From NCBI GenBank assembly GCA_964016885.1, contig OZ024741.1, positions 66,030,001 to 66,094,000 on the forward strand: DNA of 64,000 nt, in the 5' to 3' direction. The notes beneath the pieces were generated by a model, which was not told where the DNA came from, ran no database searches, and saw only the letters and a program-made list of their open reading frames with translations. This DNA comes from Eledone cirrhosa. Lineage: Eukaryota. This document shows, one piece after another, positions 4,611 through 56,161 of this stretch (its first letter is position 1; the number at the start of each line of letters is the position of its first letter). The position numbers and the translations under genes are program-made.

Positions 4611-4634
<24 letters not shown>

Positions 4635-5320: not shown

Positions 5321-5442
5321 ATGTTACAAAGAAGAAATTAATTTACAAAGCAAGTCCCAACCACTGCAAAACACCATAGCAATGCATCACTCCCATTTGG
5401 CAGTTTATATTCTGTGTCTGAGGTGGTAAATTGGCAGAGTTG

Positions 5443-7415: not shown

Positions 7416-7518
7416 TTAAGGAAGTTCTCATCTGTTTCACACATCTGAAGAGCCCTGTTAGCAGGGAAAATGAATGTAAAATAATGATGATGATGATACA
7501 TTTAAACAAATATCTGCA

Positions 7519-7712
7519 GGTCAGCTGAAAAGTTCATAGGCTGACTATGAAGGATTGATGCTAGAGCCGTGAAATCTTGCATGCATTAATTTCAACTTTT
7601 CTTATTAAATAAATACATTGTTTCTTTCCAGGTACTATGTTGAAAAATAAACCTTATTTGGTCATTCCATGAGAGTATCTAGGTCAACCTATGAACTTTT
7701 CAGCTGACCCCC
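7519..7712. mobile_element. Mariner-type MITE
   Basis: TIRs GGTCAGCTGAAAAGTTCATAGG / CCTATGAACTTTTCAGCTGACC; a solo left end TACGAGGGTTGGCTGAAAAGTTCATAGG lies at ~43610. Confidence 0.75.
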
Positions 7713-7792
7713 CCCATACCCACATACATACACACACACACACTAATACACATATATCCATAGCAACACCAAATAGATAGATGTGTGTCAAC

Positions 7793-7856
<64 letters not shown>

Positions 7857-8383
7857 TATGTTCACAATAAAACAATAACTGAGTAGACAGCACAATAACC
7901 AAGGCAGAAAGTTAATGTCCTTGTAATGAAATCAATAGTAATATTGGTGTTCACAATGCTGGAACATTTAAGTCAGTTGTGGTTAAATAATGTACTTGGT
8001 GTTAGGCTATAATGTCTATAAGATATAGAGGGACACTAACATTGACATATATAACAACAATACACATAATACACATACTCACAGATGATGGATGGATAGA
8101 TAGATTGATTGATCAATACAATGGGTGAAAGGATAGTTGTATACATACACAAACACACACAAACACACACACATGGAAAATAAGAAGACAGAGGCATCTG
8201 CAAGGAATTGATCCCTGGGATGCTAAGCAAATGTGTTAACCACTACACTAAAGAGCTGCTGACCAACAAATCTGTCTTTTTAGAAGATTTTAAGCCTGTA
8301 GCTAGAAATGTAAACAAACTGGTTGACTTTAAAAGCATCTTTTCCATCTCCAGGGGTACTTTATTCAATGTTTCTCATCTATT

Positions 8384-8628
8384 ATAATAATAATGAAAAT
8401 ATTGTGTACAGTGCTCAGGTGCACTACAACTCATCAAAAGTGTATGTATAGTACATAGGGTAATGTACGTCAGGAAAATGAAGAGTGCATGAGTCATGAT
8501 ATACACATGTGTGCATGTGTCTGGAAGGGGGACATCAGGTGTAGTTTTGGCAAATTTCAGGAAGCATGAGGGTTTTAAAGGATGCAGTGTCTCGGCAGCT
8601 AACAACTGACGCAGGCAGTTTGTTCCAT
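8384..8628 (-). mobile_element. CR1-group LINE 3' fragment (related fragments at ~15945, 33105-33330, 47055-47165)
   Basis: Matches the 3' end of 4611-4820 (TGCTCAGGTGCACTACAACTC; GCAGGCAGTTTGTTCCAT). Confidence 0.8.
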
Positions 8629-8787
8629 TAAATGATGGTGATGTTCATGTTGATATTGTTTATAACGATTGACTATTATTATGATCATTTACATTGGGGC
8701 GCACACATTGGGACACACGCATAAACAAAGTCAGCTGTACCCTATTAGCTTACAGGCTTAAAATCTAAATCAACGGAATTGGTAGCC

Positions 8788-8866
8788 AGTGGCTCATTAT
8801 CATAGTGGTTAATACACTTATAGGGCATCTGAGAGATGCAGGGTTCGATTCCTTGCAGGCATCTCT
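8788..8866 (+). other. Degenerate tRNA-like sequence or SINE head
   Basis: A-box-like TCATAGTGG and B-box GGTTCGATTCC at tRNA-like spacing; stems imperfect. Confidence 0.45.
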
Positions 8867-9053
8867 ATCCATTTTTCCCCATCTCCTGGAGTACTTCACC
8901 TGATTTTCTTAACTAATATTTATAGTGATCGACTGTTATTATGGTCATTTGTGTTGGGGTGGACATATCAAACTATATATACAGGGTGTGGACGATATTT
9001 GTTCGCAATTTTCAACTGCTAATTTTATGCAAATCTTTTTTACTTCCATTGTC

Positions 9054-11783
9054 TAGTCAGTTAGATTTTATCCTCATCAGAGGACGTGACAGATGGACGG
9101 TCGTAAACACAAAAGCCTTCCCTAGTGAGGAATGTACATCCCAACATAGCTTAGTTGTCAGCGACCTCACGGTCAGAACTAGACGAACCCGGAAACAGAG
9201 GCCAACCTGGAGAAGAAAGATCTGGAAGCTGAAAGTCCCCTCAACCAGTAACAGATTTAAAGATATTTTACTCAACGCCTACGACAGTAAAGAAGAACAG
9301 ATAGAGACATTTAACGTAGAAGAGAACTGGGAGTTCCTAAAAAATAATTTACTAGAGGCGACGGATGAGGTCTGTGGCTGGAGTAAGACCTCAAGCAGGA
9401 GGAGAGTGACTTGGTGGTGGAACAATAAGGTAGATGAAGCAGTTAAGGCCAAGAGACAGGCATGGAAAGAATGGAAGAACGGGGGGAGCAGGGTACATTA
9501 CATAGAGACCAAGAGGGAAGCTAGGCAACAAGTATACTTAGCTAGGAGGGAAGCAGAGGATAGAAAATTCAAGCATGTTTTACAACGTGGGGACCAGAAA
9601 CAGGAGGTATACAAGATTGCGAGGCAGTGTGTCAGAGATAGTTGTGATGTCATTGGAGAGAAGTGTATCCGGAATGATAAAGGTGAACTTGCCCTCACAA
9701 GTGCTGAGAAGAAAGATGCATGGAAGAGTCATTATGATAGATTACTAAATGAGGAGAATGCATGGGAAGAAGAGACCCTACCCCAAGTAGACCCTATAGA
9801 GGGACCAGCAGTACAAGTCAGCAGCAGCGTAGTAAGTAAGGCAATCAAAGATATGAAGATGGGGAAGGCAACCGGTCCATCGGGTATAGCTGCCGAGATG
9901 CTGAAGGCATCTGGGTCTGTAGGTCACACTATAACCACACGTATCGTTAACCAGGTAATACTAGAAGGGGCCATACCAAAAGATTGGTGCAGTAGCATCA
10001 TTGTCAACTGCTACAAAGGTAAAGGCGATGCACTAGATAGAGGAAACTATAGAGGTATAAAGTTGATGGACCAGGTCATGAAAGTAACAGAAAGAGTTAT
10101 AGCACAGCTGATTAGGGACCGGGTGAAAATAGACGAGATGCAATTTGGGTTTGTACCAGGAAGAGGCACCACTGATGCCCTCTTCCTTGTGAGGCAATTA
10201 CAGGAAAAGTACCTAGCTAAAAGTAAGCCACTCTACTTGGCATTTGTCGACCTTGAGAAAGCCTTTGACAGAGTTCCACGTGTTGTAATCTGGTGGGCTC
10301 TTAGAAAACTAGGAGTAGATGAATGGCTTGTGAAAGCGGTACAAGCCATGTATAGGGGAGCAGTCAGCAAAGTTAGGATTAGCAATGAGTATAGCGAGGA
10401 ATTTAGCGTACAGGTTGGGGTCCACCAGGGCTCTGTTCTTAGCCCTCTCCTGTTCATCATAGTCCTGCAGGCAATAACGGAGGAGTTTAAGACCGGATGC
10501 CCATGGGAACTCCTGTATGCTGATGACCTTGCACTCATAGCTGAATCTATGGTAGAACTAGAGAATAAATTCCAAACCTGGAAGCAGGGACTAGAAAGAA
10601 AGGGTCTCAAAGTCAACATGACAAAGACTAAGGTCCTTGTAAGTAGACGAGAAAACAGAACCCAGATCCCTTCAGGGAAATGGCCTTGCTCAGTATGTAG
10701 GAAAGGTGTAGGTAGGAACTCCATTCTCTGCCCCAAATGCAAACAATGGGTACACAAGAGATGTAACGGGATCTCAGGAAGCTTAATTAAGAATGTAGGA
10801 TTCACATGCAGCAGCTGTGCTGAAACAGCAAGCAGCAAACAGCCACAGGAAACAAGTACCACCAATCTCTGGGAGCGCCCTGTAGAAACAGTAGACAGCT
10901 TCTTCTACTTAGGTGACCGAATTAGCAACGGAGGTGGGTGTTCAGAAAGTACAATAACTAGGGTAAGAACGGGATGGAAGAAGTTTAGGGAACTACTACC
11001 ACTGCTAGCTGCAAAAGGCTTCTCCCTCAGAATGAAAGGCAAACTGTATGATGCATGTATCCGAACAGCGATGTTGCATGGTAGTGAGACCTGGGCGCTG
11101 AAGGTGGAAGACTTACGTAGATTAGAGAGAAACGAAGCCTGCATGCTCCGATGGATGTGTAACAGTAATATACGTGAAAGACAAAACATAAATGAATTGA
11201 GAGAGAGACTGAGCATAAGAGGAATCAAATGCTGTGTGCAGGAGAGGCGGTTGCGCTGGTATGGACATGTGATGCGTTTAAAGGATGACAGCTGCATAAA
11301 AAGGTGCAGAGCACTAGAAGTTGATGGAAACCGCGGAGTGGGGAGACCCAAGATGACCTGGGATGAGGTGATAAAAGCCAACCTTACCCAATTACACCTC
11401 TCAAAGACAATGACACACGACCGTGACTTCTGGCGTCACGCAGTAATACAGAGTACCCGACCTCCCATGGGTACATGCTGAAGCATATAAACAATATGCC
11501 CCCACACCCCCCACCGCAAGGTGGTCGTGGAGGTGCCACGGCAAAAAAGCACCCAACCCACACTGTAAAGTGGACGTGTAGGCGCCACGAAAAAGCACCC
11601 AGCACTCACTGTAAATGAGGTTGGTGTTAGGAAGGGCATCCAGCTGTAGAAATCAAGCCAGATCAGTTCCTGTATGAGCAAGGCATGGTCAGCCGACCAG
11701 ACACTGCACACAACAGGACAACCCGTCTAACCCATGCTAGCGTGGAAGAACGGACGTAAAACGGTGATGATGATGATGATGAT
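9054..11783 (+). mobile_element. RTE-clade (BovB-like) LINE, 5'-truncated within the APE endonuclease, with 3'UTR and (GAT)n tail
   Basis: Uninterrupted frame to the stop at 11481; motifs SQLDFIL, NYRGIKL, FVDLEKAFD, QGSVLSP, YADD, RRLRWYGHV; possible short TSD TGTC. Confidence 0.95.
9055..11481 (+). CDS. RTE reverse transcriptase ORF (partial EN, RT, C4HC3 Zn finger, C-terminus); the upstream 8941-9054 extension is read-through from flank and TIR
   Basis: 846-aa ORF in the track; RT motifs intact, no internal stop. Confidence 0.85.
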   Translation, partial: SQLDFILIRGRDRWTVVNTKAFPSEECTSQHSLVVSDLTVRTRRTRKQRPTWRRKIWKLKVPSTSNRFKDILLNAYDSKEEQIETFNVEENWEFLKNNLLEATDEVCGWSKTSSRRRVTWWWNNKVDEAVKAKRQAWKEWKNGGSRVHYIETKREARQQVYLARREAEDRKFKHVLQRGDQKQEVYKIARQCVRDSCDVIGEKCIRNDKGELALTSAEKKDAWKSHYDRLLNEENAWEEETLPQVDPIEGPAVQVSSSVVSKAIKDMKMGKATGPSGIAAEMLKASGSVGHTITTRIVNQVILEGAIPKDWCSSIIVNCYKGKGDALDRGNYRGIKLMDQVMKVTERVIAQLIRDRVKIDEMQFGFVPGRGTTDALFLVRQLQEKYLAKSKPLYLAFVDLEKAFDRVPRVVIWWALRKLGVDEWLVKAVQAMYRGAVSKVRISNEYSEEFSVQVGVHQGSVLSPLLFIIVLQAITEEFKTGCPWELLYADDLALIAESMVELENKFQTWKQGLERKGLKVNMTKTKVLVSRRENRTQIPSGKWPCSVCRKGVGRNSILCPKCKQWVHKRCNGISGSLIKNVGFTCSSCAETASSKQPQETSTTNLWERPVETVDSFFYLGDRISNGGGCSESTITRVRTGWKKFRELLPLLAAKGFSLRMKGKLYDACIRTAMLHGSETWALKVEDLRRLERNEACMLRWMCNSNIRERQNINELRERLSIRGIKCCVQERRLRWYGHVMRLKDDSCIKRCRALEVDGNRGVGRPKMTWDEVIKANLTQLHLSKTMTHDRDFWRHAVIQSTRPPMGTC

Positions 11784-16215: not shown

Positions 16216-16300
16216 AAAGGTAAACAGAAATAACAACACAATCGGTACAGTATATGGAAGGGATATATTAGGTTAACGCTTGATATAGCAGGAAGAGGGT

Positions 16301-16334
16301 CTTAACGTTTCAGACGCTAGTCCTTCATCAGAAG
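16301..16334 (-). ncRNA. Minimal type I hammerhead ribozyme motif (Penelope-type)
   Basis: Minus strand CTT-CTGATGA-A-GGAC-TAGC-GTCT-GAAA-CG-TT-AAG: canonical core, stem II, palindromic AACGTT stem III, stem I CTT/AAG. Confidence 0.8.
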
Positions 16335-16335
16335 C

Positions 16336-16890
16336 AGCATCATTTTATGTCCATAATTCCACACTTGTATGGGTTGGACAGGTCCTTTTCAGCACAGCAT
16401 CTCGCTAATTGTCGAGCTCCTTCATCCTCTCCTCCTTGAGTCTCAGTGATCTAAGATGAACTCTCATCACCTCTGCCTAGGTCTTCCTAGCCACTTCTTC
16501 ACTCAGCAATCATCATCCATATGCTTCACATTGCAATCTCCTCTCTAGCATACCACTTCTGATTCTTTTTATACCCAGTTTCTCTCTCAGTTCATCCATG
16601 CTTTGTCATTCTCGCACATTAACATTGCACAGCCGACAAAGCATGGTTGCTTCATTTCTCTCCAGCCTTTGCTGTGTTCACTGTCCAAGTCTCACTACCA
16701 TGTAGCATCACACTTTGCATACATGTATCATACAGTCAACACTTTGTGTGTAGGGAGAAACCTTCTGAGGTCAACATAGATAGCAGCTCCCTAAACTTCT
16801 TCCATCCTATCCTTATTCTATCTACTGTTTTCAGAGCAGCCTCATCCACTGCTAATTAGAACATCTAGGTAGCAGAAGCCATCAACCCTG
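16336..16890 (-). mobile_element. Degraded RTE LINE 3' part
   Basis: Antisense similarity to RTE ORF (IRIGWKKFRELL, MLHGSETW) with indels; (GAT) tail. Confidence 0.75.
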
Positions 16891-38968: not shown

Positions 38969-40333
38969 TTAAGGAAGTTGGCATATCTTTGAGACAGCTA
39001 AAGAGTCCCCCTGACTCTTTGTTTGGTAGGTTTTCTATGGCTGAGTGCCCTTCTTATCATCAACTACTTAACAGAATGTAAATATAATCAATTGCAATTT
39101 TAAAGCTAGACTGAAACAAGAAGACAAACAAAACTGGGTGAAAAACAGGATGCGATTACACAACATGCAAATATTTTACCAAAAGACTATTACAAACTAA
39201 TGTGAAACAAGGTCATTGTACACTTAAACATTCTTTATAAACAGACATTCAGTTGGATAGTGATGTATAAGTTAATCCACCCAACATCTTATAACTTTGG
39301 GTGTTGGATTGGTTTATAGCTATAAGGAACCTATTGCAGAAATATAATCTGGTCGCTCCTCATCCTATTATCAAGATGTTAGATTTTTATTATAACATTG
39401 CTTTCTTGTTTATTAAAAATGAAAATTGTTTGTATCAAGATCGATCAGGAGATACAGATTTATACATTATACCATTGTGTTGAACTATAAATACATGAAT
39501 TTATTCAAATGGAGTAGAAAACAATGCAGCCATGTTTGATGGTTGAAACACCAGCAAAGAGAGTTAGTTATGTTGTTATTTAATTGACTTGGAATTGAAA
39601 AAACCCTAAAATACTTGGCAATTTTCTCAAAAGAAATGCTTAATAGAAAGAATAAGAATCAAACAACAAGACTACGCCCATTAAATACTTTCTCTTTCAT
39701 GCTTTTTTAAAATATATTTATAAATGTAGTTTCTGGTGATATAAAGGAAAACAATTGCGTAATTATTTCTAGTGAAACAGACAGCCATAGAGTTGTCTCT
39801 AATTTTAGAATTCATTGTGATACTTTTTATAGAAGACCTGGAGAAACGAAAATGGAAATAAATATAATAAATGATGTTTTCATACAATAAATGCTATAAA
39901 TATGGTCAAGAATTTCAGAGTACATATTTTATATTGATGCCGAACTTTCTAGACTGGTAGGAGTTGCATTCAATAATATGGTATACATATGATAGAGATG
40001 GTGATGGTGGTGTATGTTAAGAAGGAGGGGAAAGAATGAGGAATTGACAATAAAGGAAAGAAATGAGGGGTAATGATATAGAAGAGAAAAGAAGAAAACA
40101 GGAAAACACAAGAAAATATGAACTAAACAAAGAAGACAGAAGAATAGGGACAACAACAGCAAAAAGAATGGTATCCGATTAAAGCTATGTGGTCTGTCAG
40201 ATTGGTTAACATCTCACTACAACCCCAATGACAAGACATGTCAATAGAGGAATATATGTGGTTACTTAACATGCTAGAAATAGCAACCAAATCTACTGTA
40301 AATTACAATGTACAATCTTCAAAGAGTTTAAAG

Positions 40334-41777
40334 GTACACAAGCCATGTATAGGGGAGCAGTCAGCAAAGTTAGGATTGGCAATGAGTATAGCGAGGAATT
40401 TAGCGTACAGGTTGGGGTCCACCAGGGCTCTGTTCTTAGCCCTCTCCTGTTCATCATAGTCCTGCAGGCAATAACGGAGGAGTTTAAGACCGGATGCCCA
40501 TGGGAACTCCTGTATGCTGATGACCTCGCACTCATAGCTGAATCTATGGTAGAACTAGAGAATAAATTCGAAACCTGGAAGCAGGGACTAGAGAGAAAGG
40601 GCCTCAAAGTCAACATGACAAAGACTAAGGTCCTTATAAGTAGACGAGAAAACAGAACCCAGATCCCCTCAGGGAAATGGCCTTGCTCAGTATGTAGGAA
40701 AGGTGTAGGTAGGAACTCCATTCTTTGCCCCAAATGCAAACAATGGGTACACAAGAGATGTAGCGGGATCTCAGGAAGCTTAATTAAGAATGTAGGATTC
40801 ACATGCAGCAGCTGTGCTGAAACAGCAAGCAAACAGCCACAGGAAACAAGTACCACCAATCTCTGGGAGGGCCCTGTAGAAACAGTAGACAGCTTCTGCT
40901 ACCTAGGTGACCGAATTAGCAACGGAGGTGGGTGCTCAGAAAGTACAATAACTAGGGTAAGAACGGGATGGAAGAAGTTTAGGGAACTACTACCACTGCT
41001 AGCTGCAAAAGGCTTCTCCCTCAGAATGAAAGGCAGACTGTATGATGCGTGTATCCGAACAGCGATGTTGCATGGTAGTGAGACCTGGGCGCTGAAGGTG
41101 GAAGACTTACGTAGATTAGAGAGAAACGAAGCCTGCATGCTCCGATGGATGTGTAACAGTAATATACGTGAACGACAAAGCATAAATGAATTGAGAGAGA
41201 GACTGAGCATAAGAGGAATCAAATGCTGCGTGCAGGAGAGGCGGTTACGCTGGTATGGACATGTGATGCGTATGAAGGATGACAGCTGCATAAAAAGGTG
41301 CAGAGCACTAGAAGTTGATGGAAACCGCGGAGTGGGGAGACCCAAGATGACTTGGGATGAGGTGATAAAAGCCGACCTTACCCAACTACACCTCTCAAAG
41401 TCAATGACACACGACCGTGACTTCTGGCGTCACGCAGTAATACAGGGTACCCGACCTCCCATGGGTACATGCTGAAGCATATAAACAATATGCCCCCCCC
41501 CCCCCACCGCAAGGTGGTCGTGGAGGTGCCACGGCAAAAAAGCACCCAGCCCACACTGTAAAGTGGACGTGTAGGCGCCACGAAAAAGCACCCAGCACTC
41601 ACTGTAAATGAGGTTGGTGTTAGGAAGGGCATCCAGCTGTAGAAATCAAGCCAGATCAGTTCCTGTATCAGCAAGGCATGGTCAGCCGACCAGACACTGC
41701 CCACAACAGGACAACCCGTCTAACCCATGCTAGCGTGGAAGAACGGACGTAAAACGGTGATGATGATGATGATGATG
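40334..41777 (+). mobile_element. RTE LINE, second 5'-truncated young copy
   Basis: Near-identical to 10338-11783; open frame 40345-41475 with YADD; (GAT)n tail. Confidence 0.95.
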
Positions 41778-42571
41778 ACAAGACTGAAATACTCATTATG
41801 AGTGAAATATTCATTAAGAGGATATATGTCTGTGGAATACTCAACCACTGGCATTAATTTAATGAGTAGGCAGTACAATTGATTGAACAACTAAATGCTA
41901 ATTGTCAGAACCAACAGAGGATTTCAGGTTAAACAACACTAACTAGTAGTTATTTTTTCAAGCCCAGTGAGGGGGGAAAGCTCAAGTTAACTCCAGCTGT
42001 ATTCTTGATCAAAGCTGATCTGTGGCTAAACAATAACATTAACTAGTAATTATTTTATCAAACCTAGTGAGGAGGAAAACCCAATTCAACTCCAATTGTA
42101 TTTGAACTCAGACTGTTAGAGACAGAAGCATTTAGTGAAAGACATTTAGCTTAACCCATGTAGCAAGCTACTTGCCTTTGGCGTATTTATAAACTATTCG
42201 TGCGTGATGTGGCTAAGTCAGGCCAATCGTGAGCCGCGTACGAATTTATATTATCAACTTCCGCCCGAACAAAGATTTTCCCGATTCTTTCATATATACT
42301 CTCTTGCTACTTGAACTTTGAAAGGAAAAGACATTATTATGTAGCGGTGAGATCTTCTCCTTGGGTCTGACACAACGCCACTTCTTAACTCTTAATTGTT
42401 TGTTCCTTTATTTGACATGTCAACTCAACTTAACACTTTGTAATTAGTTGTGAATAAAAACAGGTAAAAATGTTATCAAAGACTTTACGACTAATTCCAC
42501 AAACATTCACTTCTCTCACACTTAACAAACCGTTACATTCAAACTAAACCTCTAACTGATATACTTTAGCC

Positions 42572-42749
42572 CAGTGATTCTCAACCAGTCTGCCACGATA
42601 TCTTCCTAAGTGTGCCGCAAAATTTCATTTTCGCCATGTTTTTATTTTGTAAAATTCAAATATTTTTCATATATATTTAGCCAGGTGTGCCACTATTTTT
42701 TCATGTGTTCCAAGGTGTGCCGTTGGCAAAAAAAGGTTGAGAACTACTG
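42572..42749. mobile_element. hAT (Charlie-type) MITE
   Basis: TIRs CAGTGATTCTCAACC / GGTTGAGAACTACTG; perfect 8-bp TSD CTTTAGCC (42564-42571, 42750-42757). Confidence 0.92.
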
Positions 42750-43659
42750 CTTTAGCCTAACAAAAACCATATCTGCTACAACAAAAATACATATTCTTCT
42801 TATTATTATTATAATTATTATTTTGCTGTTAATTAAACACACAACAAAATATGTCACTCCCTCTACTATCTTAACACTTTTAATACCAACCAACATAAAA
42901 CTGCTCATAATTTTGTGATATAAATAAAACCTTTCATTTTAAATTGTTTATATTTAAATTTAAAAGAAAAACATTTTTTCGTAATTCTATGTAAGAACCT
43001 TTGTTATGTTCCAAATACTAGTTTAATAATGAGAAAGTTAAGCATTTTATTTACTCCATCCATTAAAATTTTTGGTTATTTTCAAAACTATCTGAATTGT
43101 CTTTCATTAGAAATATGTTAATGAAAACATCTGAAGGAAGGTTCAAATGTGTTGGTGGCTTGGCTATAATGTAATATAATATAACAACACACCAGATGCT
43201 AACTACTTGTAGAATGTTTACAGAAAGTGAAATGAATACTTATCAACTTTTACATACATACTACTTAACTTGACTAAATCTATACAAAATAACTTTGTTA
43301 TTGAGTCTGAACAACGATGCCTTACATATGCTAGAAAAACACATTTAAACCATTAGTTTTCATCACAGTCTTAGATATATGTTAAGATGTTAATGTCTTC
43401 ATATTTTAAAACTATATAAATTAACTTGTTATGGCATTCATTTAATGATTCCTTACATGAGTTCAAGACATCACATTTTAACATTTAGCCTCGAGACTAA
43501 GAAGGGAATCTCTCAGTGTTTGCATTATTTACAATAAAAAGCAACTAAACCTTATTCAAATCACATCTGACTGTCTTTAAAAAATAAAAAGAGGACATAT
43601 TGAACAATATACGAGGGTTGGCTGAAAAGTTCATAGGCTGACTATCAGAGCCTGCTTGC

Positions 43660-44760
43660 TTAATTTCTTTATAATTTTCATAAGTCCTCTGTACACAAAG
43701 CCCAAATCTCACTACCATATAGCATTGTCATTCAAACTGTATTTTACTCTGAGGCAGAAACACTTTGTAGCTAGCAGTGGTAGTAGCACTCTGAGCTTTT
43801 TCCCATTGGTCCTTACTCTGGCCACTGTATTTTCAGAACACTCACCCCCACTGCTAATTTGGTCCTTTAGATAGCCAAGCTGTCAGCTATTTCTAGGTAG
43901 CCCTCGGAGTATTTGAAGGGCTTGTTTCCTGTGTGCTCTTGTTGTTTACTGATCCTGTGCATTGGCTACATATAAAGCCTATTTTCTTTGCTAACTCACC
44001 AGCAATCCCACATCTTCTGTGTACCCAAAGCTTACTCCTTTCCTGCATAGTGAGCAGGGCCATTTCCCAGAAGGAATTAGAGCCCTGTTTTCATTTTTAC
44101 TCTCTAGGACTTTGGTCTTTGGTGAGTTGACTCAGAGGCCTATTGTTTCTAGGTTTTGCTTCCATGTCTGGAATCTCTTCTCTAGTTCTGCTGCAGTTTC
44201 AGCTATGAGGACTAGATCATCAGCATATAAGAGTTCCAGCAGGCAGCCAGTTTTAAACTCCTCTGTTATAGCCTGAAGGACAATAATAAACAGGAGGGAG
44301 CTGAAGACTGAGCCCTGGTGCACCTTGACCAGCGCACTAAATTTGTCACTGTATTCATTATTGACTAACCTTGACTAAGGACAGTGGATTGGCAGTATCG
44401 GTAGAGGGTCGGACGCCATGCTTTGCAGCATAGAGTTACGGCTCTTTATGATCTGAATTCAAATCCCACCTAAGTTAATTTTGCCTTTCATCCTTACGGG
44501 GTCAATAAAATAAAGTACCACTCATGCACTGGGGTCGATTTAATCAACTTTCCCCTCCCCAAAAATGTCTGGCCTTGTGTCTATATAAGAAACCATTATT
44601 GACTAACCTTACTGAGTGCAGCTCTAAGTATCTTGTACCACTCATACCAACCAGTTCTCCGCCTCTAGCTTCCTAAGAGCTCACCAGATTATAGAGTGTT
44701 CAATGCTTTTTACAGATAAAGAAATGCTAGTTAAAGGAGTATACTTTTCCTACAGCTGTC
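43660..44760 (-). mobile_element. Old degraded RTE LINE interrupted by SINE B
   Basis: HQGSVFSSLLFIIVLQAITEEFKTGC..LLYADDL on the minus strand, many indels. Confidence 0.85.
44373..44593 (+). mobile_element. SINE family B with target-site duplication
   Basis: CATTATTGACTAACCTT repeated at 44356-44372 and 44594-44610. Confidence 0.88.
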
Positions 44761-45098
44761 TCACAATTATATATTTACAATCTATAATCTATATATAATA
44801 GAAAAGAGAGATGTTTGTTGGTTATTGTCTTCGCGCAATACACAAAAACGAAAACTCACAATCAAAAAGTAAGTACACCAATGGAAAAAGGATATACTCA
44901 GAAAGATTTATTGATACTCATTTTATAACATCAAAGAAGAAGAAAAATATCCTAGGTATGCTAACCAACCTGACTGCTATTTCTAGCAGGTTGGGAGAAA
45001 ACCATAAGGGATTTTCTCTGCATTGTCAGTGATGCTTGTGTTTTGTGGCCAGTGTCTCTGTGAATTCAAACACTAATTTACACTCACACACATTTAAA

Positions 45099-45659
45099 TC
45101 TATATCTATATATAATATAAAAGATTGGAACTCCCATCATCCTTTTGAGGAACGTGGACCTGCCACGTCTATGCGATGGCATATGCTTAACAGTCATGTG
45201 GATGATTAACCATCTCCTAGAGGTCGTTATTCTTAAGGGCAGTAAATGCATTTATTCCCAAGATTCCTCTTATCCCTTCCTCTACAAAGCTGCCATTCAA
45301 ATTCTCAAAACTTCAGTTCCCTGTTAGAGCCAGTTCTCCTATGACCATACATAAAGCTCAGGCTCAGAGTTTCAAAGTTGTAGGATTGAATATTGGAGAA
45401 TCAGCTTTTACCCATGGACAGTTATATGTAGATTGATATTGAGTGGAAACACCTAGAAATCTTCATATACTATGCACAAATGGTAAAACGAAGAATCTGG
45501 TGTATCTGGAAGATTTTTTACTTTTTTTTTTTTTTGGCATACACACACATCACGGTCTCACCTCATACTGTAAATCAGACAACACATCCAATACAGTCAT
45601 TTTCTCTACTGCCTGTCTTATCATCTGTTTACCTGGATGAAGCTGGATGCCTCATCTAG
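45099..45659 (+). mobile_element. Internally deleted Helitron with PIF1-helicase C-terminal pseudogene (45121-45517)
   Basis: 5' A|TCTATA.., 3' degenerate hairpin + CTAG|T; translation GTPIILLRNVDLPRLCDG.. / FIPKIPLIP..LPFKFSKLQFPVR..MTIHKAQAQS..VVGL..FTHGQLYV..GKTKNLVY with a frameshift and stops. Confidence 0.85.
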
Positions 45660-46192
45660 TATATTTATATATATATGTGTATGTGTATGTGTGTTTGTGT
45701 GTGTGTGTATTTATATATACTTATTTAATTTACTTATACCAGGATAGATGAAAATGAAAGTAAACCCTGATAGGATTTGAACTTAAAAAGCAGGTGGAGG
45801 GGGAAATCTATATACTGTTAGGAATTTGGTCTGGCACTCTACCAAAGTCTGCTTTTCTACTATCATATTAATAATAACAATAACAACCATTCAGTAGTTT
45901 TTGGTAAGCGTCTTTTGGAGAAAAAAATATAATCCAAAAACTTGCCAGCTGCACTTCCTTGCTTTTTCATACAACGACCTAGTTTGTTATATTGAGAACA
46001 TATATATGTAAGTATATATGTATATGCGTGTGTGTATAGAGTAGAGGAATATAATCGAAATTTGTATTTTTATTAAAAAAATATAAAACAAGCTTGCACC
46101 CTGTTGTTTGTGTGTGTGTGCGCGCGTGCGATGCGTGTGTGTGTGTGTGACATATCATTTCATATAATCAAAATTAACTCTTTCATTACCAT

Positions 46193-46528
46193 GGAGGCAC
46201 ATGGCTTAGTGGTTAGAGCATTGGGCTTGCTATCGAAAGGTTGTGAGTTCAATTCTCAGACCAGGTGATGTGTTGTTTCCTTGAGCAACACACTTTATTT
46301 CACATTGCTCCAGTTTACTCAGCTGTAGAAATGAGATGATAGGACTGGGGTCCCTATCATTCCACTGTAAAGTGGACGTGCAGACACCACGGAAAAAAAA
46401 GCACCCAGCACTCACTGTAAATGAGGTTGGTGTTAGGAAGGGCATCCAGCTGTAGAAATCAAGCCAGAATCAGTTCCCGTCCCACCCTTGCAAGCAGGGA
46501 AAAGCGGACGTAAAATGATGATGATGAT
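46193..46528 (+). mobile_element. SINE family A, full length
   Basis: tRNA head, central domain, RTE-derived tail. Confidence 0.85.
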
Positions 46529-47278
46529 TACCACATTTCTAAGGAAAGGCAATACTTATGATTTTCAAATCATTTAAAAAATAATCAAGAATTTCAAAAC
46601 TTTCTCATTATTAAGATGATAATTGAAGTATAACTTAATAAACATTCTTACATAGAGATATGATGAAAGGGTTTTAGGTAAATGTAAATACTTTAAAACA
46701 AACAATTTTGTATCACAGAACCTTGAGAGGTTTCAGGTAGTTTAGTTTCAAAAGAGTTAATGGATGTTGAGCAGACTTATGGTATTTTCCATGGTTATTG
46801 TATATTTGTGACTACATCATTCAATGCCTTTCTGACACTCCTTTTCAAGACAGCTGGGTGTAATTTGGAGAATATTTGGTTGCTATTTCTACCAGGCTGA
46901 GCAACAGATGACACCTTCATGGATTCATAGCAGGTGGTTATGTGATCATTTTAAGTGGAACAAATCAACACATCAACTTACCTAAGGTAAAGAAAGAAAA
47001 GCAAAACCTGATGTAAAGTGTAAATATAATGATAATAATTTCTTGTAAAAATAATATAAATAATAATGAAAATTAGTGTGTACAGTGCTCAGGTGCACTA
47101 CAACTCATCAAAGGTGCATGTATAAGACATAGAATAATGTACAAATATCAAGAAAGTGAACAGAGGCAGAAGACCTGAAATTTTGGTAGAAAGTGCCAAG
47201 ATAATTCTAGTACTTGATTGCTACTTTATTTTATCAACCTGGAAGGATGAAAGGTAAATTTAATCATAGCTAAATTCC

Positions 47279-48200
47279 GTGTACCCAGTGCCATGACCTC
47301 ATCAGACAGCTTCTTACATAATAAGGTTACATTTCCGAGGCAATCCAAATTAAAAAGACAAGGGAACGGACAAAGAGTGTTCTTGAAGCCTTTGCCCGTT
47401 TTTCTGTACTGGACTATCGTTCAATATATGGATAATATATCTGTAATATCCAATATGGATCGCCTTTTCATAATTTCTAACTATAATTTACACATCTTCC
47501 TATTTATTATATTTTTTATTTACGTCAATCAAGATTTTAACTTTTAATTTCTAATTTTCAACCTTATTTACCAATTTTAATTTCTATTATGAAACCATAA
47601 TATCTAGACTCTAGAATTAAGTTTATATTCTATTGTCCAAGCATAATTTAAGGATAGTATCGAAACCTATTGAAACTTATACTCTACCACTACCACTAGA
47701 TTTCGGTTGGCTGCCACTGGAAGAGCGACCGGCTGTGAACTCTATGACTGTGTGACCTTACTGGCCTGGATGCGGGTGATTGATTGGTTGGTTCAGGGGG
47801 AGGTGCCTAGGCTAGTTTTGTTGTGTTTTGGAGTAGTAGTTAGATGGTCAACGCCCTTCACATTTGCGCCTGCGCAAAGCTGTGGAGGCAGATTTGGGCT
47901 TACAACGGAATGGGCGAAAACTTCAAGAACACTCTTTGTCCGTTCCCTTGTCGTTTCAATTTGGATTGCCTCGGGAACGTAACCTTATTATGTAAGACGC
48001 TGTCTGATGAGGTCATGGCACTGGATACACCAAAGCATGTGGCCACTGTCATCATTGAAATATGTATCACAGCCTTATCAATAAATGACTTTAACATCTG
48101 AAACTACTTCGCATTTTCTTATTCTAAGTATACTCCGTCACTCCTATGTGGAAAAAGTACGTTGAGTGCTTGAATTGAATTACATCAATATTTACCGTAA
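47279..48200 (+). mobile_element. Penelope-like 3' end / pseudo-LTR with inverted partial pLTR and a hammerhead motif
   Basis: 47279-47388 is the reverse complement of 47921-48030; hammerhead at 47999-48073, AATAAA at 48080, tail ends in (TA)n. Confidence 0.7.
47999..48073 (+). ncRNA. Type I hammerhead ribozyme motif with extended stem II
   Basis: GCTGT-CTGATGA-GGTCATGGCA-(26 nt)-TGTCATCATT-GAAA-TATGTA-TC-ACAGC. Confidence 0.75.
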
Positions 48201-48289
48201 GTATATATATATATATATAAAGAAAAAGAGATGAAATCGAAAATGCAACTGAAGTCTTATTTTTTTTTTAAATATATATTTATTTGGTT

Positions 48290-48327
48290 CCTTTACCGGT
48301 TTCGCAGTTCTTTTGCTTTTCAAAAGG
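48290..48327 (-). ncRNA. Minimal hammerhead motif, U3:A8 variant (inverted copy, one stem II mismatch)
   Basis: Minus: CCTT-TTGAAAA-GCAA-AAGAA-CTGC-GAAA-CCGG-TA-AAGG. Confidence 0.7.
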
Positions 48328-48396
48328 TGAGTTGAGATGGAGGGTCTGTGGTTTTTCTCACAGTGAGAAAAACCACAGACCCTCCATCTCAACTCA

Positions 48397-48434
48397 CCTT
48401 TTGAAAAGCAGAAGAACTGCGAAACCGGTAAAGG
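48397..48434 (+). ncRNA. Minimal hammerhead motif, U3:A8 variant
   Basis: CCTT-TTGAAAA-GCAG-AAGAA-CTGC-GAAA-CCGG-TA-AAGG: stems I and II fully paired, palindromic ACCGGT stem III, GUA cleavage triplet. Confidence 0.78.
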
Positions 48435-49213
48435 AACCAAATAAATATATATATATTTTTTTTTTAAATAAGACTTCAGTTGCATTTTCGATTTCATCTC
48501 TTTTTCTTTATACTTCCACTCGTGTAGGACACCTCGGTTATTTTTCATTTTGTAAAAAAAACCTCACTTTCTAATATATATATATATATATATATATTAT
48601 CTATGTTCATACACACACATACACATACATATATACACACACACAAATGTGTGTGAGTATATCTAATCCTACACATACCAGTATGGAAAAATGGTTATGA
48701 TGATGATTATGATTAATTTTTATATAAAAATATTTATAACAATGACTTTTAACATAAACACAAGACCAGACGTTTTTGTTGAGAAGTGCATTTACAACAT
48801 TTTTGCCCATTTTTCAGTTTTACAATGTGAATGCTTTCATTACTAAATAAACATAACTTTCATTATTTTGGAAACTAATACAGCAATCACAAGATATTTA
48901 TGTTCTTTATCAATGTAACTTATATATATATATAAATAAACCATTGGCTTGAAATCCCTTATTATTGTTTGTTTTTTTTAAGTACATTCTATATTGTTTG
49001 CAAATTTTGAATCTCTGACATTCAAAATATAAAAATCCACAAACCTCTTCTAAATAAATGAATAAATAAATAAATAGATAATAAAAATAAAAATGAAAAA
49101 CCTTTTTCAGGGATTTATTAAAATAATTAATTATTTCACTCTAAGATAGTAACTTAAGAAATGGTTCTTATTTAGAATTATGTTAGATTTTAATTTAAAT
49201 AGGATCCCTTTAA

Positions 49214-49421
49214 CCCTTTAGCTTTTACATAACTCTATATTTACTATTATATTTTCATGGTAAAGGCTTTACCTCACATAATATCGAATCTATGAGATTT
49301 TGATACTATTTAATTTGAGAATAATACCTGAACATAAGTATGAGTGGCTCGTTACAGCCAGTTTGAACAGGAAGAGGTGAGTGAATTCTGGCCAGATACG
49401 GCCAGTTTAAATCCTAAAGGG
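49214..49421 (+). mobile_element. piggyBac-type MITE family 1 nested in an older AT-rich TTAA-type MITE (family 2, ~49105-49495)
   Basis: TTAA duplicated; flanks match the uninterrupted family-2 copy at 56447-56667. Confidence 0.8.
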
Positions 49422-50045
49422 TTAAAATTGGTGGTTTTGTTTCATAGAATATGAAGAAGTGGTTTGGGGGCAGGTTGGTATCAAAAGGATTTAAAAGTGT
49501 ATACAAAAAGACAAAACAAATTTTGCTTCAAGAATTATAGCCTGATTGTATTAGGGGAAGAAAAATAGAAAGAAGGATCAGGCAACGAAAGAAAGGGAGA
49601 GAGGAAGGGATAGTCACTACACCCCAATCTGAGCAGTGGCATAGCCGCGCCTTACAAAATAAAATGGCAAAGTGTTACCGCAGAGAATGGCTAGAATCAC
49701 TCAAATGAGCGCCCACTTCACTCCGCCAACATGGGTTATACAGGTCTTCTCCAGCATTTTTTTCCCCTGAAGCTGACATCTATCAAGCTAACAAAACCAG
49801 TGTTGCTGCTGATTTTGCTCTTAACAGTTTTATTGGTGCAACCTCTTTTTTTTTCAATTGCACATGTCACAATGACATGTTTGTTCAATTATCATTTTAT
49901 TTTTGTTTGTCTTTCTTTTTTTTTCTATATCTGCTAATTTTGGTGGGTGATTAGGGACTCAGTTTTTACTACCACCTTCATGAAAGCCTCCTCTTACTAC
50001 CATTTCAGTGAACATCATCATCATCATCACCACTTTTACACCCAC

Positions 50046-50305
50046 TTTTCCATGCTAACAAGGGTTTCTCCAAAACATTTTCCATGCTAACATGGGCTTG
50101 TCCAAAACATATTCCATGCTAACATGGGCTTGTCCAAAACATTTTCCATGCTAACATGGATTTCTCCAAAACATTTTCCATGCTAACATGGATTTCTCCA
50201 AAACATTTTCCATGCTAACATGGATTTCTCCAAAACCTTTTCCATGTTGACATGGGTTTCTCCAAAACATATTCTATGCTGACATGGGTTTGTACAAAAC
50301 ATTTT
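50046..50305. repeat. Minisatellite, ~30-31-bp unit, about 8 copies, derived from a minus-strand RTE/SINE tail
   Basis: TTTTCCATGCTAACATGG(G)TTTCTCCAAAACA units follow a (CAT)n tail. Confidence 0.9.
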
Positions 50306-50707
50306 AAGGTAGTGTTTTACAGAAGTTTTCTCTTTCTGACTTTTTCCCCAAGCTTGAAGACTTAAAGTTATTTCTTCCTCCAAACAGAGAAAAACATAAA
50401 AAAATTCCTCTACCATCTCTTTACCTGATGCTTACAAATGGGACACAAAATAAACATCTAGTTAGGACATTAACCGCATTTTTCAAAGCCTTGTGTGCTT
50501 GTAACACTCTTTTCTCATTGATACCTCCCTCTAATAACAATAATAATGATTATTTTTAATTGAGACACAAGTCAAAAAAATTAGGAGGAAGGGGAAGTTG
50601 ATTAAATCAACACTAGTCAATAATGTGTATGTGTTTGTATGTCCTCATCATCATCATCACTGTTTCATGCCATTTTTCAAAGTTATATAATATATATACA
50701 AGCCGAA

Positions 50708-50970
50708 GCTGAAGCATATAGACAATATGCCCCCACACCCTCCCACTGAAAAGTGGTCGTGGAGGTGCCACAGCAAAAAAGCACCCAGCACTCACTGTAA
50801 ATGAGGTTGGTGTTAGGAAGGGCATCCAGCTGTAGAAATCAAGCCAGAATCAGTTCCCGTATGAGCAAGATAAGGTCAGCCGACCAGACACTGGACACAA
50901 CAGGACAACCCGTCTAACCCATGCTAGCGTGGAAGAACGGACGTAATACGGTGATGATGATGGTGATGAT
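50708..50970 (+). mobile_element. RTE 3'UTR-only insertion (similar at 55718-55925)
   Basis: Begins GCTGAAGCATATA at the RTE stop codon and continues to (GAT)n. Confidence 0.85.
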
Positions 50971-51000
50971 ATATATATATACATATATACATACATACTT

Positions 51001-51300
51001 CATTTTTGTATTTCTTTTACAAGATTTCTTATCTGAAAATGTATATTAAAACAGGTATTGTTATACTTTGGGAGTGTCATTCTGCCACAAAACAAGATGG
51101 TGTAGGACAGAACAAAGGAGAGACAAAATAACAAATTAGTTGCTGAGGAGATCACAGAATGTGTGATGAAAGAGCTTTGACAATAAATAAACAACCATCC
51201 AGTTATTAAACCGACCAACCGGAAATTTGTGATAAATTGAAGTAAAATCCAACAGGTGGATGTGTTTATATTGGCAGTATGACCCTCCCAAAGTATAACA
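51001..51300. mobile_element. Second, diverged member of the 4312-4580 fold-back family in opposite orientation
   Basis: Arms 51059-51087 / 51272-51300; tail 51001-51058; shares ACCAACCGGAAATTT and ATAAATTGAAGT. Confidence 0.7.
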
Positions 51301-52258
51301 TATCTATGAATATATGATATCTGTTGGCAGCATGTTGCTCTGTTTCGGAAGCTGTACTACATGCTTGTGTAAAATAAAACCAAATGTTTATGCTTATATG
51401 TATCAAATGTTAGAGGTTGAGAGTGCATAATTTAAAAAAGCAGTTGAACAAATATGTATACGTGTGTGCGTCTGTATGTTGTTACCATTCATTTAGTCAA
51501 TAAATCTGTTAGGAATAGCAGCCACTTGTGAGTAAAACCACACCTTACTACTAATGTATGTATGTATATATGTAGGTATGTATGTCATCATCATTGTTTT
51601 TATGTCTGTTTTTTTCACGCTTGCCACCATGTATACCACCATGTTGGCCCTACCTACTATAAGTAGGCAGGGCCAACATGGTGGTATACATTTTACTGCC
51701 AGAATTTAAATTTTGACTGTTAGATTTACACCAGGACTTTAAAAAATGTGCCCAACATTAAGAAAATAAGCACTTCATACATATTACACAAGGTCACTTT
51801 ACTTTCTAAAGATTGTCTCAACCCTTGAGGCTTATTAGACTATGGTTTACTGGTTAAAGCGTAAGATTCACAAGCATGAGATTGTGAGTTCGATTCCATG
51901 ACTGGGTGATGCATTGTGTCCTTGAGCAAGACACTTTATTTCACATTGCTCCAGTTCACTCAGAAGTAGAAATGAGTTGCAATGTCACTGGTGCCAAGTG
52001 GTATCAATCTTTGCCTTTCTCTTGGACAACATCAGTGGCATGGAGAGGGGAGACTGATATGCATAGGTGACTGTTGGTCTTTCATAAAAACACCTTTGCC
52101 TTAGAAGGGGACTTTATACGTGCAAAATCAATAGTCATTCATGACCGAAGGTTTTTTAAAATCTTTTTTACTCTTTTTCACTTAACCAGGCTTAACCAGA
52201 ACCAATATCCTCCAACTAAGTGGTTTGCTCTGGTAAATTACATAGAGTAATGTCAATA

Positions 52259-52375
52259 CAGTGAAATTCCCTTATAATGAAATTCACGGGATATAAAAAA
52301 GTTTGTTGTAACAAAAAATTCTTTATAACAAGATCGACCAAAACAATCGAGCGTTTGTTATAATGGTATTCATTA
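52259..52375. mobile_element. pogo/Tigger-type MITE, degraded
   Basis: TA|CAGTGAAATTCCCTTATAATGAA ... TTTGTTATAATGGTATTCATTA|TA. Confidence 0.55.
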
Positions 52376-52504
52376 TATTAGAATTTTACCTGCATAATAG
52401 AAAATAGAGTACTGCTCATACCTGAGGTCCACAGAGTTGCACATTGCAGTGCAGGGAAGATATGTAATAAAAGTAATAAAACTACTGAATAATAACAACA
52501 ACAA

Positions 52505-53420
52505 CAATAATAATAATAATGGTTTCTTATATAGGCACAAGGCCAGCAATTTGGGGGGAAGGGATAGTCGATTAAATCGACCCCAGTGCGTGACTGGTAC
52601 TTTATTTTATCGACCCCGTAAGGATGAAAGGCAAAGCTAACCTCGGTAGGATTTGAACTCAGAATGCAAAGGGCCATAACGCTATGCTGCGAAGCAGGGT
52701 GTCTGGTGCTCTACAAATTCTGTCAATCCACCACCCTAATAATAATAATTGTTTCTACTTTTGGCACAAGGCCAGCAATTACCCAGTACATTACTGGTAC
52801 TTTATTTTATCGACCCCGTAAGGATGAAAGGTAAAGTTAACCTCGGCGGGATTTGAACTCGGGCCGTAAAGGGCCATAACTCTATGTTGCAAAGCATGGC
52901 GTCCGACTCTCTACTGATACTGCCAATCCACCGCCCTAATAATAATAATAATAATTGTTTCTACTGTTGGCACAAGGCCAGCAATTACCCAGTGTATTAC
53001 TGGTACTTTAATAATAATGGTTTCTTATACAAGGCCAGCAATTTTGAGGGAGGAGGGAAGTCGATTAAATTGACCCCAGTGCGTGACTGGTACTTTATTT
53101 TATCGACCTGTAAGGATGAAAGCAAAGCTAAACCTCGGCAGGATCTGAACTCAGCATGTAAAGGGCCGCAACTCTGTGCCATGAAGCAGGGTGTCTGGCG
53201 CTCTACCTATACTGCCAATCCACCACCCTTAATAATAATAATAATTGTTTCTACTTTAGGCACATAATAATAATGATGATACTGATGCTGATTTAAGCAC
53301 AAGGCCAGCAATTTTTTTTTTGGGGGGGGGGGGATTAAATTGACCCTAGTATGTAACTGGTACTTTATTTTATCAACCTTATAAAAATGAAAAGTAAAGC
53401 TAACCTCAGCTGGATTTATA
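52505..53420 (-). mobile_element. Tandem cluster of 4-5 SINE family B copies and fragments
   Basis: Head-to-tail consensus copies separated by (AAT)n; two subtypes alternate. Confidence 0.85.
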
Positions 53421-53726
53421 ATAATAATTGTTGTTCTCATCACCACGTTAATATTCATTTTCCTATGAAGTCATGTGCTGAGTGGATCTTCCACACGCAA
53501 CACATTGCCACTTAGCTTATTACTTCCTCGAATGTGTGGGGGTGGGTGCGAGTGTGTGTATGTGTGTGTGCATGAGTATGACTGAATGCTTGCAGCTGTA
53601 TCTGTACACAAACTCTGGAAACCATATGCTATTACTTCTCCACATACCTCTGCTACATCAATGAAATCACAAGCCACATTCCTTCTCATTGTCTATTTGG
53701 ATTATTTATATGTCTATACAATCACA

Positions 53727-54446
53727 ACAAAAAGCTCCCAGTCCACACTGTAAAGTGGTGTGTTAGTGACATGACAAAAAGCTCCCAGTCCACACTGTAA
53801 AGTGGTCATATTAGTGACATGACAAAAAGCTCCCAGTCCACACTGTAAAGTGGTCATATTAGTGACATGACAAAAAGCTCCCAGTCTACACTGTAAAGTG
53901 GTGTGTTAGTGACATGACAAAAAGCTCCCAGTCCACACTGTAAAATGGTTGTTAGTGACATGACAAAAAGCTCCCAGTCCACACTGTAAAGTGGTCATAT
54001 TAGTGACATGACAAAAAGCTCCCGATCCACACTGTAGAGTGGTGTGTTAGTGACATGACAAAAAGCTCCCAGTCCACACTGTAAAATGGTTGTTAGTGAC
54101 ATGACAAAAAGCTCCCAGTCCACACTGTAAAGTGGTGTGTTAGTGACATGACAAAAAGCTCCCAGTCCACACTGTAAAGTGGTCATATTAGTGACATGAC
54201 AAAAAGCTCCCGATCCACACTGTAGAGTGGTGTGTTAGTGACATGACAAAACGCATCCAGTACACACTGTAAATGTGATTGCCGTTTTGAATGGCATCCA
54301 GTTGTAGAAACCAAGCCAGAATCACTTCTGTATGAGCAAGATGTGGTCATCTGATCTGGCTTGTCTAACAATGGGACAACTTGTCTAATCTATGCTAGCA
54401 TGGAAAAATGGACATTAAACAGTGATGATGATGATGATGATGATGA
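53727..54446 (+). repeat. Minisatellite of 11 full 46-48-bp units plus a terminal unit running into an RTE-type tail
   Basis: ACAAAAAGCTCCCAGTCCACACTGTAAAGTGGT(GTG/CATA)TTAGTGACATG; homologous to the RTE 3'UTR unit at 11540-11615. Confidence 0.92.
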
Positions 54447-54664
54447 TACAACCATAGATGTCATGTCTGTATTCAATAATAATAATGGCTTCCATGCCTA
54501 ACCATTCGACCATTTCACTCATGTGTGTTCCATCTATCATGCACTAGGATAACAATGTCAAATGCTCTTCAGAAGAAAAATGTCTTCTCTTCTACCTTAT
54601 GGCACTAAACATCGCCTGGATGAGAGAATTTACAGATATGTTTCACTTTCACCATTTCAATATA

Positions 54665-55008
54665 CAGTCGTCCCCCAATATTCGCAGGGGTTATGTTCCT
54701 AGAGCACCCACAAAGAGTAAAAAACCGCGAATATTGCATGTGGTCCATAAAAATGCCTATAAACGACAAAATATAATGTAAAATATAGGCTGCTAAATAT
54801 GGTATATTGTTATAAATAATTTTGCGTTAAAAAGTGTGAAAAAATATATATTGCCACGAAAAAAGCCATTAAAAAATCACGGAAGATATTTACGATTCCA
54901 CGAATATGCGGTGGTTCCCACAAACAATTATTAGTTAGGTTCTAAGGAAAATCCCGTGAATAACCAGGACCGCTAATGAAGGGGGGGGGGGGGGGGGGGG
55001 GGGCACTG
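54665..55008. mobile_element. Tigger-like MITE
   Basis: TA|CAGTCGTCCCCCAATATTCGC left TIR; right end CCGCTAATGAAG(G)nCACTG; internal CCGCGAATAT. Confidence 0.6.
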
Positions 55009-56161
55009 AATTTTATAAGTCAATGTTTCATAGCATATAAAGTTTGTTGAGCTGATGTTCTTTATAAAAGATATCTTTAAATTATTTATTAGCAAAGAAA
55101 TGATATTAGAGATTACATATGGTTATAAGAGAGTTGTAATGCAGTCACTCAACCTGCTAAAGATAGCAGCCAAATATCACAGTCTAGGTCTAATGACTGT
55201 CTCAAACCCAGAGGCTCATTAGGCCGGTGCTTATCCCGGTTTCCATGCCGTGAACCGACAGAGTACAAGACTTTCCAGTACAAGACAGTATGCCAGTCCA
55301 CTGCTATTACTGATACTCATCTTCAGTTGAGTATACTGGAGCAACGAGAAGTGAAGTTGCCCAAGAACACAACACACAACCCAGTCTAGGAATTGAACTC
55401 ATGACATTATGATCATAAGTCCAGCATCCTTACCATGAGGCCCCACACCTCCACAAATATCAATGTACCTTCTATTAAAATAAAGTAAAAAGACCTATTA
55501 GATAATATGGTCCTAGATATAACATCATGTCACATCTGGAACATTTTTTTATTATAATCAATCTGCTTGATGAGGGTTGACCTGGGGCTACACAGCAACA
55601 ACATGCTTTGAATGAAACATTTTATTGCCAATAAACCAATAAAAGCGAGCATTTCTTGACAAGTGTACATTTAATTACCTAACTATGCACAAAAGTACAA
55701 ATGCATAAATCAACTCACGGACATGTAGGCGCCACGGAAAAAAGCACCCAGCACTCACTGTAAATGAGGTTGGTGTTAGGAAGGGCACCCAGCTGTAGAA
55801 ATCAAGCCAGAATCAGTTCCTGTATGAGCAAGACAAGGTCAGCCGACTGGACACTGCCCACAACAGGACAACCCGTCTAACTCATGCTAGCGTGGAAGAA
55901 CGGACGTAAAACGATGATGATGATACATTCACACAGTGTGTGTATATAGAAAGAGAGAAAGCACCTGTTTATGTAAGAATTTCTATTAAATAAACAACTA
56001 GAAACAGTTAACCAGTTTAATGTTGAGACACTCATATTTTTTAACTGTATCTGATTATTGTACAAAGAAGTTAGTTATATTATTAGTTTCTGTGTAGAGA
56101 AACAAACAAGTTGAATGATGAGCCGAGCTTTCATCCAGATTACACATGTAGACCACTTTAA

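Follow-up and report, generated by a model that had tools for sequence, protein, structure and literature searches.

A 64,000-nt stretch of the Eledone cirrhosa genome (contig OZ024741.1; here termed the window), a setting rich in microsatellites and short repeats, carries a motif with the letters of a hammerhead ribozyme around an unusually long domain II. The locus raises the questions of whether this is a hammerhead in more than its letters, what kind of element carries it, and whether, as a preliminary description proposed, its second stem is branched and supplies tertiary contacts or a platform for protein binding. A check of the sequence from 47999 to 48085 found every letter listed in that description at the position claimed, with nine of the ten stem II pairs able to form and the odd one a C·C apposition (Table 1). 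The core CUGANGA...GAAA...NUH is that of a type I hammerhead, its columns are invariant in the family (an invariance partly imposed by the search patterns), and the three helices follow the type I layout with an open-ended stem I. Judged by its sequence, the motif at these coordinates is a real hammerhead motif and not a chance pattern, since the family pattern finds at least 1,971 close copies in the genome and none in a reversed control. Rfam reports no hammerhead family at E<=5 in the window from 40000 to 56000, and none at E<=10 in eight sibling loci. The AATAAA that follows the motif is present as described, but it is not fixed in the family, in which ATTAAA is common. The window holds one more hammerhead-like motif, on the minus strand at 16286-16345 (core at 16331). 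It is of the usual minimal kind found in Penelope-like elements (PLEs) and consists of CTGATGA, one bulged base, a 4-bp stem II, GAAA-CG-TT and a 3-bp stem I; folding gives it no support (z -1.2).

Table 1. Positions of the hammerhead motif and of the repeats around it in the window.
Feature	Position	Strand	Remark
Inverted, truncated second terminal repeat	47274-47400	-	92% identity over 122 nt to 47909-48030
Penelope-like repeat, 5'-truncated, subfamily A, ~1.3-kb ORF-less	47396-48201	+	Ends in (TA)n at 48202
Stem I 5' strand GCTGT	47999-48003	+	Pairs with 48069-48073; no double-sided change in 87 copies
Catalytic core CUGAUGA	48004-48010	+	From sequence; N7 is T, C or G among copies
Domain II, 46 nt	48011-48056	+	One long helix, unbranched, interrupted by mismatches, apical loop of 4-6 nt; window copy damaged
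Stem II 5' strand GGTCATGGCA	48011-48020	+	Pairs with 48047-48056
C·C mismatch, 5' C	48014	+	Partner C48053; stem II position 4
Insert, 26 nt	48021-48046	+	Enclosed by the stem II strands
Stem II 3' strand TGTCATCATT	48047-48056	+	9 of 10 pairs; exception C48014·C48053
Core GAAA	48057-48060	+	From sequence
Stem III region ATATGTAT	48060-48067	+	Self-complementary, with two of the pairs G·U; predicted to form a dimer helix
C17, predicted cleavage site after AUC	48068	+	From the hammerhead consensus
Stem I 3' strand ACAGC	48069-48073	+	From pair counts in 87 copies
AATAAA	48080-48085	+	From sequence
Tail motif TACTCC...GAGTGCTT	48131-48171	+	Also present in coding Hydra-type elements; possible signal for the enzyme that mobilises the repeat

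A 181-nt stretch of the locus has 2,655 genomic candidates, the best siblings being 90-94% identical, and the copies are located at the 3' repeat of an element of about 1.3 kb that lacks an ORF and has PLE architecture. The unit measures 1,280 nt in subfamily A and 1,310 nt in subfamily B, with longest stop-free frames of 89 and 108 aa, respectively; an ORF for reverse transcriptase (RT) plus GIY-YIG is absent from it, and tblastn with PLE proteins gave no match. In subfamily B, units of 1,310 nt follow one another head to tail in arrays that also contain inverted blocks (G000:C1:130.88 Mb), and each tandem unit holds one complete type I hammerhead; the window copy, which is 75-77% identical over its length to three other genomic subfamily A copies, is not in a tandem array. 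Among 28 B loci, the 3' end falls mostly 64 nt past the cut site, some loci bear a tail of about 60 nt, many adjoin (TA)n, and a truncated partner in inverted orientation is often present. The inverted copy beside the window motif retains the 5' strand of stem I and CTGATGA and runs on into stem II, of which half is present before the copy breaks off. Partial-tandem terminal repeats with a hammerhead, inverted 5'-truncated copies and an optional tail are described as marks of PLE insertions in the available portions of Craig 2021 (PMC8557442). As read from its genomic copies, the family has these structural marks of non-autonomous PLE insertions, and the core, the stems and the tandem and inverted terminal repeats of PLE type together bear out the earlier assignment of a type I hammerhead to a Penelope-like repeat. 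No coding parent with the family's own hammerhead occurs among the 28 B loci and 8 longer A/C loci.

Other repeats in the window deserve a brief description. Just downstream of the element, at about 48220-48510, lies a near-perfect long inverted repeat with sub-threshold miRNA matches, which is probably a tail-to-tail pair of another repeat; its sequence also occurs in two of the fetched loci (L128 and L015) and was very high-copy in run X1. LINE reverse transcriptase fragments, which we take to be of RTE type, are found at 40270-41475 (plus strand, a 401-aa open frame) and at about 10270-10710. Finally, a 601-nt inverted repeat at 4618-6661, with arms 98% complementary and 842 nt apart, resembles the inverted structure of a PLE insertion.

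Elsewhere in the genome, hammerheads with shorter arms and the same core, stem III and C·C pair stand downstream of RT-endonuclease ORFs. These ORFs bear DKT, a CxCX5C linker, CxxC and CxH, with (TA)n insertion (L124, L125, L128, L129, L330), and RWK was seen only as RWR, in L066. DKT, CxCX5C, CxxC and CxH are given as marks of the Hydra clade in the parts of Craig 2021 (PMC8557442) drawn on here, and on the strength of these motifs the coding relatives in this genome would belong to that clade. Pfam searches of six PLE proteins found GIY-YIG in one, which is Neptune-like, and nothing in the five of Hydra type. The Neptune-like GIY-YIG fragment (Pfam PF01541; L065:1200-2510, minus strand) is followed by its own short-stem hammerhead-like motif, of a different class. 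The flanks of the window family align weakly with coding Hydra-type families (z at most 3.3). GAGTGC occurs within 200 nt downstream of the hammerhead in 15 of 30 clusters, coding ones included, vs 2 of 30 upstream; it lies 71-133 nt past the cut site, usually after ACTCC, and falls in the tail, the region in which reverse transcription of the anole PLE starts according to the accessible text of PMC11167929. From the common hammerhead architecture and the shared tail motif, we infer mobilisation by Hydra-type enzymes. Of 20 other long-stem loci, one (L330:2033-5150) combines a hammerhead whose domain II is 42 nt long with a decayed Hydra-type ORF that precedes it in sense, which implies that long arms occur in coding elements too.

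Comparison with the hammerheads reported for the Hydra clade (Craig 2021, PMC8557442, in the portions available) shows both shared and differing features. Common to both are a type I hammerhead near the 3' end, an N·Y pair (often U·U) next to the core, a stem III region of 8-9 nt and (TA)n targets. The published Hydra-clade hammerheads have a stem II of 3-7 bp, short loops and no C·C, whereas the window family has a domain II of 45-53 nt and is ORF-less. One octopus member is included in that listing, with a hammerhead of other sequence, and a motif search of the supplement, in which long sequence runs were only partly covered, found none of the window family's signatures.

Stem III is palindromic, as had been described. 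It comprises 2 bp as a monomer and 8 bp as a dimer. An 8-bp self-duplex forms at 20 C with each of the variants seen across families, namely TATATA, TATGTA, TACGTA, TGCGCA and TGTGCA, a variation seen only within the limit TRYRYA that the search pattern imposed; self-duplex energies run from -4.8 (window family) to -13.7 kcal/mol (20 C). By analogy, such a palindrome fits the published dimer model of PLE hammerheads. The further proposal that TATGTA (48061-48066) is a CpG-decayed TACGTA was ruled out. Decay of TACGTA is expected to give TACATA about as often as TATGTA. TACGTA occurs in 14 of 1,971 family copies and the sister product TACATA in 3 of 1,971, all three within the TATATA subfamily, while TATGTA and TATATA are the dominant forms, and CpG decay after insertion is rejected for this reason; other CpGs of the same subfamily are largely kept (32 of 45 at one site). 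TACGTA is over-sampled in our alignment of 87 distinct copies (inserts of 45-46 nt, picked from 127 extracted motifs), for which those loci were fetched on purpose, and it is the stem III of some sister families.

PLE hammerheads are poor cutters in vitro and are absent from some clades. Dependence on a dimer or on protein has been published for them (PMC4209133, PMC11167929 and PMC6765202, each in the parts available). We consider it probable that a protein-less PLE of about 1.3 kb, itself likely copied by a Hydra-clade Penelope reverse transcriptase/endonuclease, carries the window motif in its terminal repeat as a type I hammerhead, which is predicted to cut after C48068 only in dimeric form or when aided by a protein. 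Under this scheme, the hammerhead of the window family would be weak alone, and the two hammerheads of a tandem transcript would pair via their stem III palindromes; the distal part of stem II would be a tolerated, length-variable extension, and constraint would act on the mismatch close to the core, be it C·C or C·U.

If cleaved linear RNA were the main template, the 5' ends of insertions would be expected to pile up at the cut site. None of 107 insertion junctions falls within 2 nt of it, and 56 of the 107 extend upstream of it, although some of the far-upstream end points are alignment stops at indels and not true junctions. A cluster of 5' ends just past the cut site, seen in 28 loci, vanished in the 107 junctions: of nine ends at position 74, seven are a SINE and two are inversions. 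That position of the family B unit, 5 nt after the cut site at ATTATTATTAAA, is a SINE insertion hotspot, with one SINE end shared by seven of the 107 junctions (L165, L166, L170, L343, L370, L403, L404); the three examples examined differ in their 5' junctions, which suggests separate SINE events.

The absent footprint agrees, by analogy, with the anole PLE, and circular templates would give the same pattern. It is also a point in favour of a possible, if doubtful, alternative in which what is retained is the hammerhead fold itself, as a signal to the Penelope protein for binding or folding, with self-cleavage rare in vivo or not required. The anole PLE, for which insertion from an uncleaved transcript and a hammerhead that needs protein in order to cut are described (PMC11167929, in the available text), is consistent with such a signal, as is the weak base of stem II: position 10.1-11.1 is G·U in 13 of the 87 copies (the window copy among them), G-C in 1 and unpaired, mostly U·U, in the other 73, in contrast to the conserved G10.1-C11.1 pair described in PMC4209133 (in part). 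Yet the core and the NUH site are kept across families whose stems are fully rewritten, circular templates likewise leave no 5'-end footprint, and the parts of PMC7229834 consulted place an axolotl family whose helix II has U·U at its base among canonical retrozyme hammerheads.

It is unlikely that the family is a strict non-LTR retrozyme, that is, a set of tandem units that canonical hammerheads release as abundant circular RNAs. Non-LTR retrozymes share with it non-coding tandem repeats and type I hammerheads (PMC7229834; Li et al. 2026 preprint; both in part), its tandem units are ORF-less with one type I hammerhead each, and retrozymes have been proposed to be non-autonomous PLE derivatives (bioRxiv 10.64898/2026.07.22.740005, accessible portions). 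However, the 1.3-kb unit is larger than the consensus range of 51-972 bp given in the same portions of that preprint, a study of periods of up to 1,000 bp, and retrozyme units are mostly a few hundred bp, whereas the unit of the window family has a PLE tail and inversions; most copies are truncated or inverted PLE-type insertions, and the loop 1-loop 2 geometry of canonical hammerheads is absent.

The protein-less PLE with a dimer- or protein-dependent hammerhead is the preferred reading. Domain II in this family spans 45-53 nt, with a stem II about 19-20 positions long. Given the hammerhead structure, 83.2% of stem II cells pair in the 87 copies, compared with 11.7-53.4% when the partners are slid; for stem I the figure is 96.8%, partly imposed by the search pattern. 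Cells of stem II changed on both sides number 41, a total that none of 500 shuffles reached (their value was 17.1), and stem from few subfamily events, whereas the number of double-changed pairs, 9, is not above the shuffles (54 of 500). Covariation is seen, for example, at column 20/57, where A-U becomes G-C in 17 copies, at 24/53, where C-G becomes G·U or A-U, and at 34/43, again from A-U to G-C; RNAalifold recovered only 9 stem II pairs. Among 125 distinct long inserts (at least 44 nt, each folded, a few of them spurious matches), 121 form a single hairpin; z for folding is -3.1 to -3.4 in three sibling inserts and -1.0 in the window copy. The palindrome GTGGCCAC, intact in 46 of the 87 aligned copies, is located within the helix. 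Taken together, the aligned copies indicate a stem II that is long, unbranched and covarying; the family comparison upheld the pairing of both stems, and of the atypical domain II first proposed, the unusual length stood and the branching did not.

A branched domain II whose insert supplies tertiary contacts is highly improbable and already largely refuted: TGG-ATACA-CCA is part of the minimum-energy fold of the window copy and its three pairs can form in 19 of 45 subfamily A rows, but that fold is incompatible with the hammerhead register, 35 of the 45 rows allow the unbranched pairs, nearly all long inserts form one hairpin as above, and inserts range from 26 to 61 nt across families with unrelated sequences.

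At 10 of 81 columns the window copy carries a letter other than the one commonest in its subfamily, with changes inside stem II that include 48025, 48032, 48037 and 48051. Placed inside a stem II of hammerhead register, the TGG-ATACA-CCA hairpin reaches -6.8 kcal/mol vs -17.6 kcal/mol for the unbranched helix (20 C). In its best fold, which includes the hairpin, 48011-48019 pair instead with the GTGGCC region; for domain II alone at 20 C, this misfold has a probability of 0.77 vs 0.23 for the hammerhead register, and in the whole motif the stem II mid-pair probability is 0.02 vs a family median of 0.96. By these energy models, the window copy is predicted to misfold; it is probably inactive, and it is an ordinary decayed repeat. 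Because the hairpin-bearing fold of the mutated copy removes the hammerhead register, the "branch" is a by-product of decay. The same models place core nucleotides in alternative pairing in most copies (median 0.9), which would be weak evidence for an off state, as such models ignore the non-canonical core.

The feature of domain II that is kept is the C·C mismatch, found in 82 of the 87 aligned copies. A relaxed pattern (CTGANGA N26-64 GAAA TRYRYA TM) has 107,691 genomic matches vs 315 in the control; C stands at the fourth position of both stem II strands in 76,630 of these (4 in the control) and at that position of neither strand in 1,207 (203 in the control). Among 100 matches listed, most of those without C·C belong to one large C·U family. 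In 22 clusters, drawn from the 212 of 267 distinct motifs with a stem I of at least 4 bp, C·C is the commonest state in 21 and C·U in 1; the pair adjacent to the mismatch is T-A, G-C or A-T depending on the family, and the neighbours covary between families. Since a C·C pattern served to fetch many of the cluster loci, and since some of the clusters amount to subfamilies of a single family, it is the counts over the whole of this genome that are unbiased, though weighted by large families. Inserts of at least 42 nt occur in 4,312 C·C motifs from several unrelated families, with lengths of up to 61 nt, which argues that a long stem II is a recurring, tolerated extension. One such unrelated family (L326, L327, L328) has a 61-nt domain II of about 25 bp, the C·C mismatch and a TACGTA stem III. 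The mismatch likely matters for ribozyme function, and for a tertiary or protein-binding role it is a better candidate than the insert.

Set against published systems, each known from the parts of the sources available, this class differs in several respects. Metazoan PLE hammerheads (Cervera 2014, PMC4209133) likewise have a CUGANGA/GAAA core, a short stem I, a palindromic stem III as dimer helix, many divergent families per genome and opposite-strand pairs. Their helix II, however, is 3-8 bp, which that source presents as larger than usual and not as the very short stem II that the preliminary description held to be typical, and the richest genomes there contain about 4,000-9,000 motifs. The axolotl has 126,247 motifs (PMC7229834) in 28 Gb, a count similar to that found here in about a tenth of the DNA (3.0 Gb). 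For the long domain II, the nearest precedents in PMC8557442 are PLE-X1_sMoe of Selaginella, with a 9-bp stem II and a loop of about 35 nt, and eight Naiads labelled "HHR_half_core", one of them from Octopus, in which the second half of the core lies 35-50 nt away; in the portions available these are single entries marked as deviating, presented without structure analysis or a C·C feature. In a metagenome scan, one of 80 loci with DNA (at least 117 were listed) passed the stem filter, vs 29 of 40 genome motifs, and we read this single locus as chance. Our search of the published hammerhead literature, which left most subscription papers and Repbase outside its scope and so does not prove absence, found no description of the class. 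A hammerhead in a non-autonomous PLE is thus of a known kind; what is new is a subclass marked by an unbranched stem II of very great length, by conservation of the C·C and by about 100,000 motifs that Rfam misses.

These observations bear on the role of hammerheads in Penelope-like elements. A hammerhead class missed by standard models occurs about once per 28 kb in this 3.0-Gb genome, in many unrelated families in which every stem has been rewritten and one mismatch near the core has been kept. The C·C mismatch names a single nucleotide pair to mutate, for which the natural stem II lengths, 26 to 61 nt, serve as controls. Tentatively, and with considerable doubt, the roughly 100,000 hammerheads may form a subclass in which the C·C, three pairs from the core, replaces the loop 1-loop 2 contact and, together with the tail motif, constitutes the binding and switch-on site of the Penelope protein, so that stem II would be free to reach 20-30 bp. 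If this were true, the ribozyme would be gated by protein, and its dozens of families would amount to a mutational library supplied by nature.
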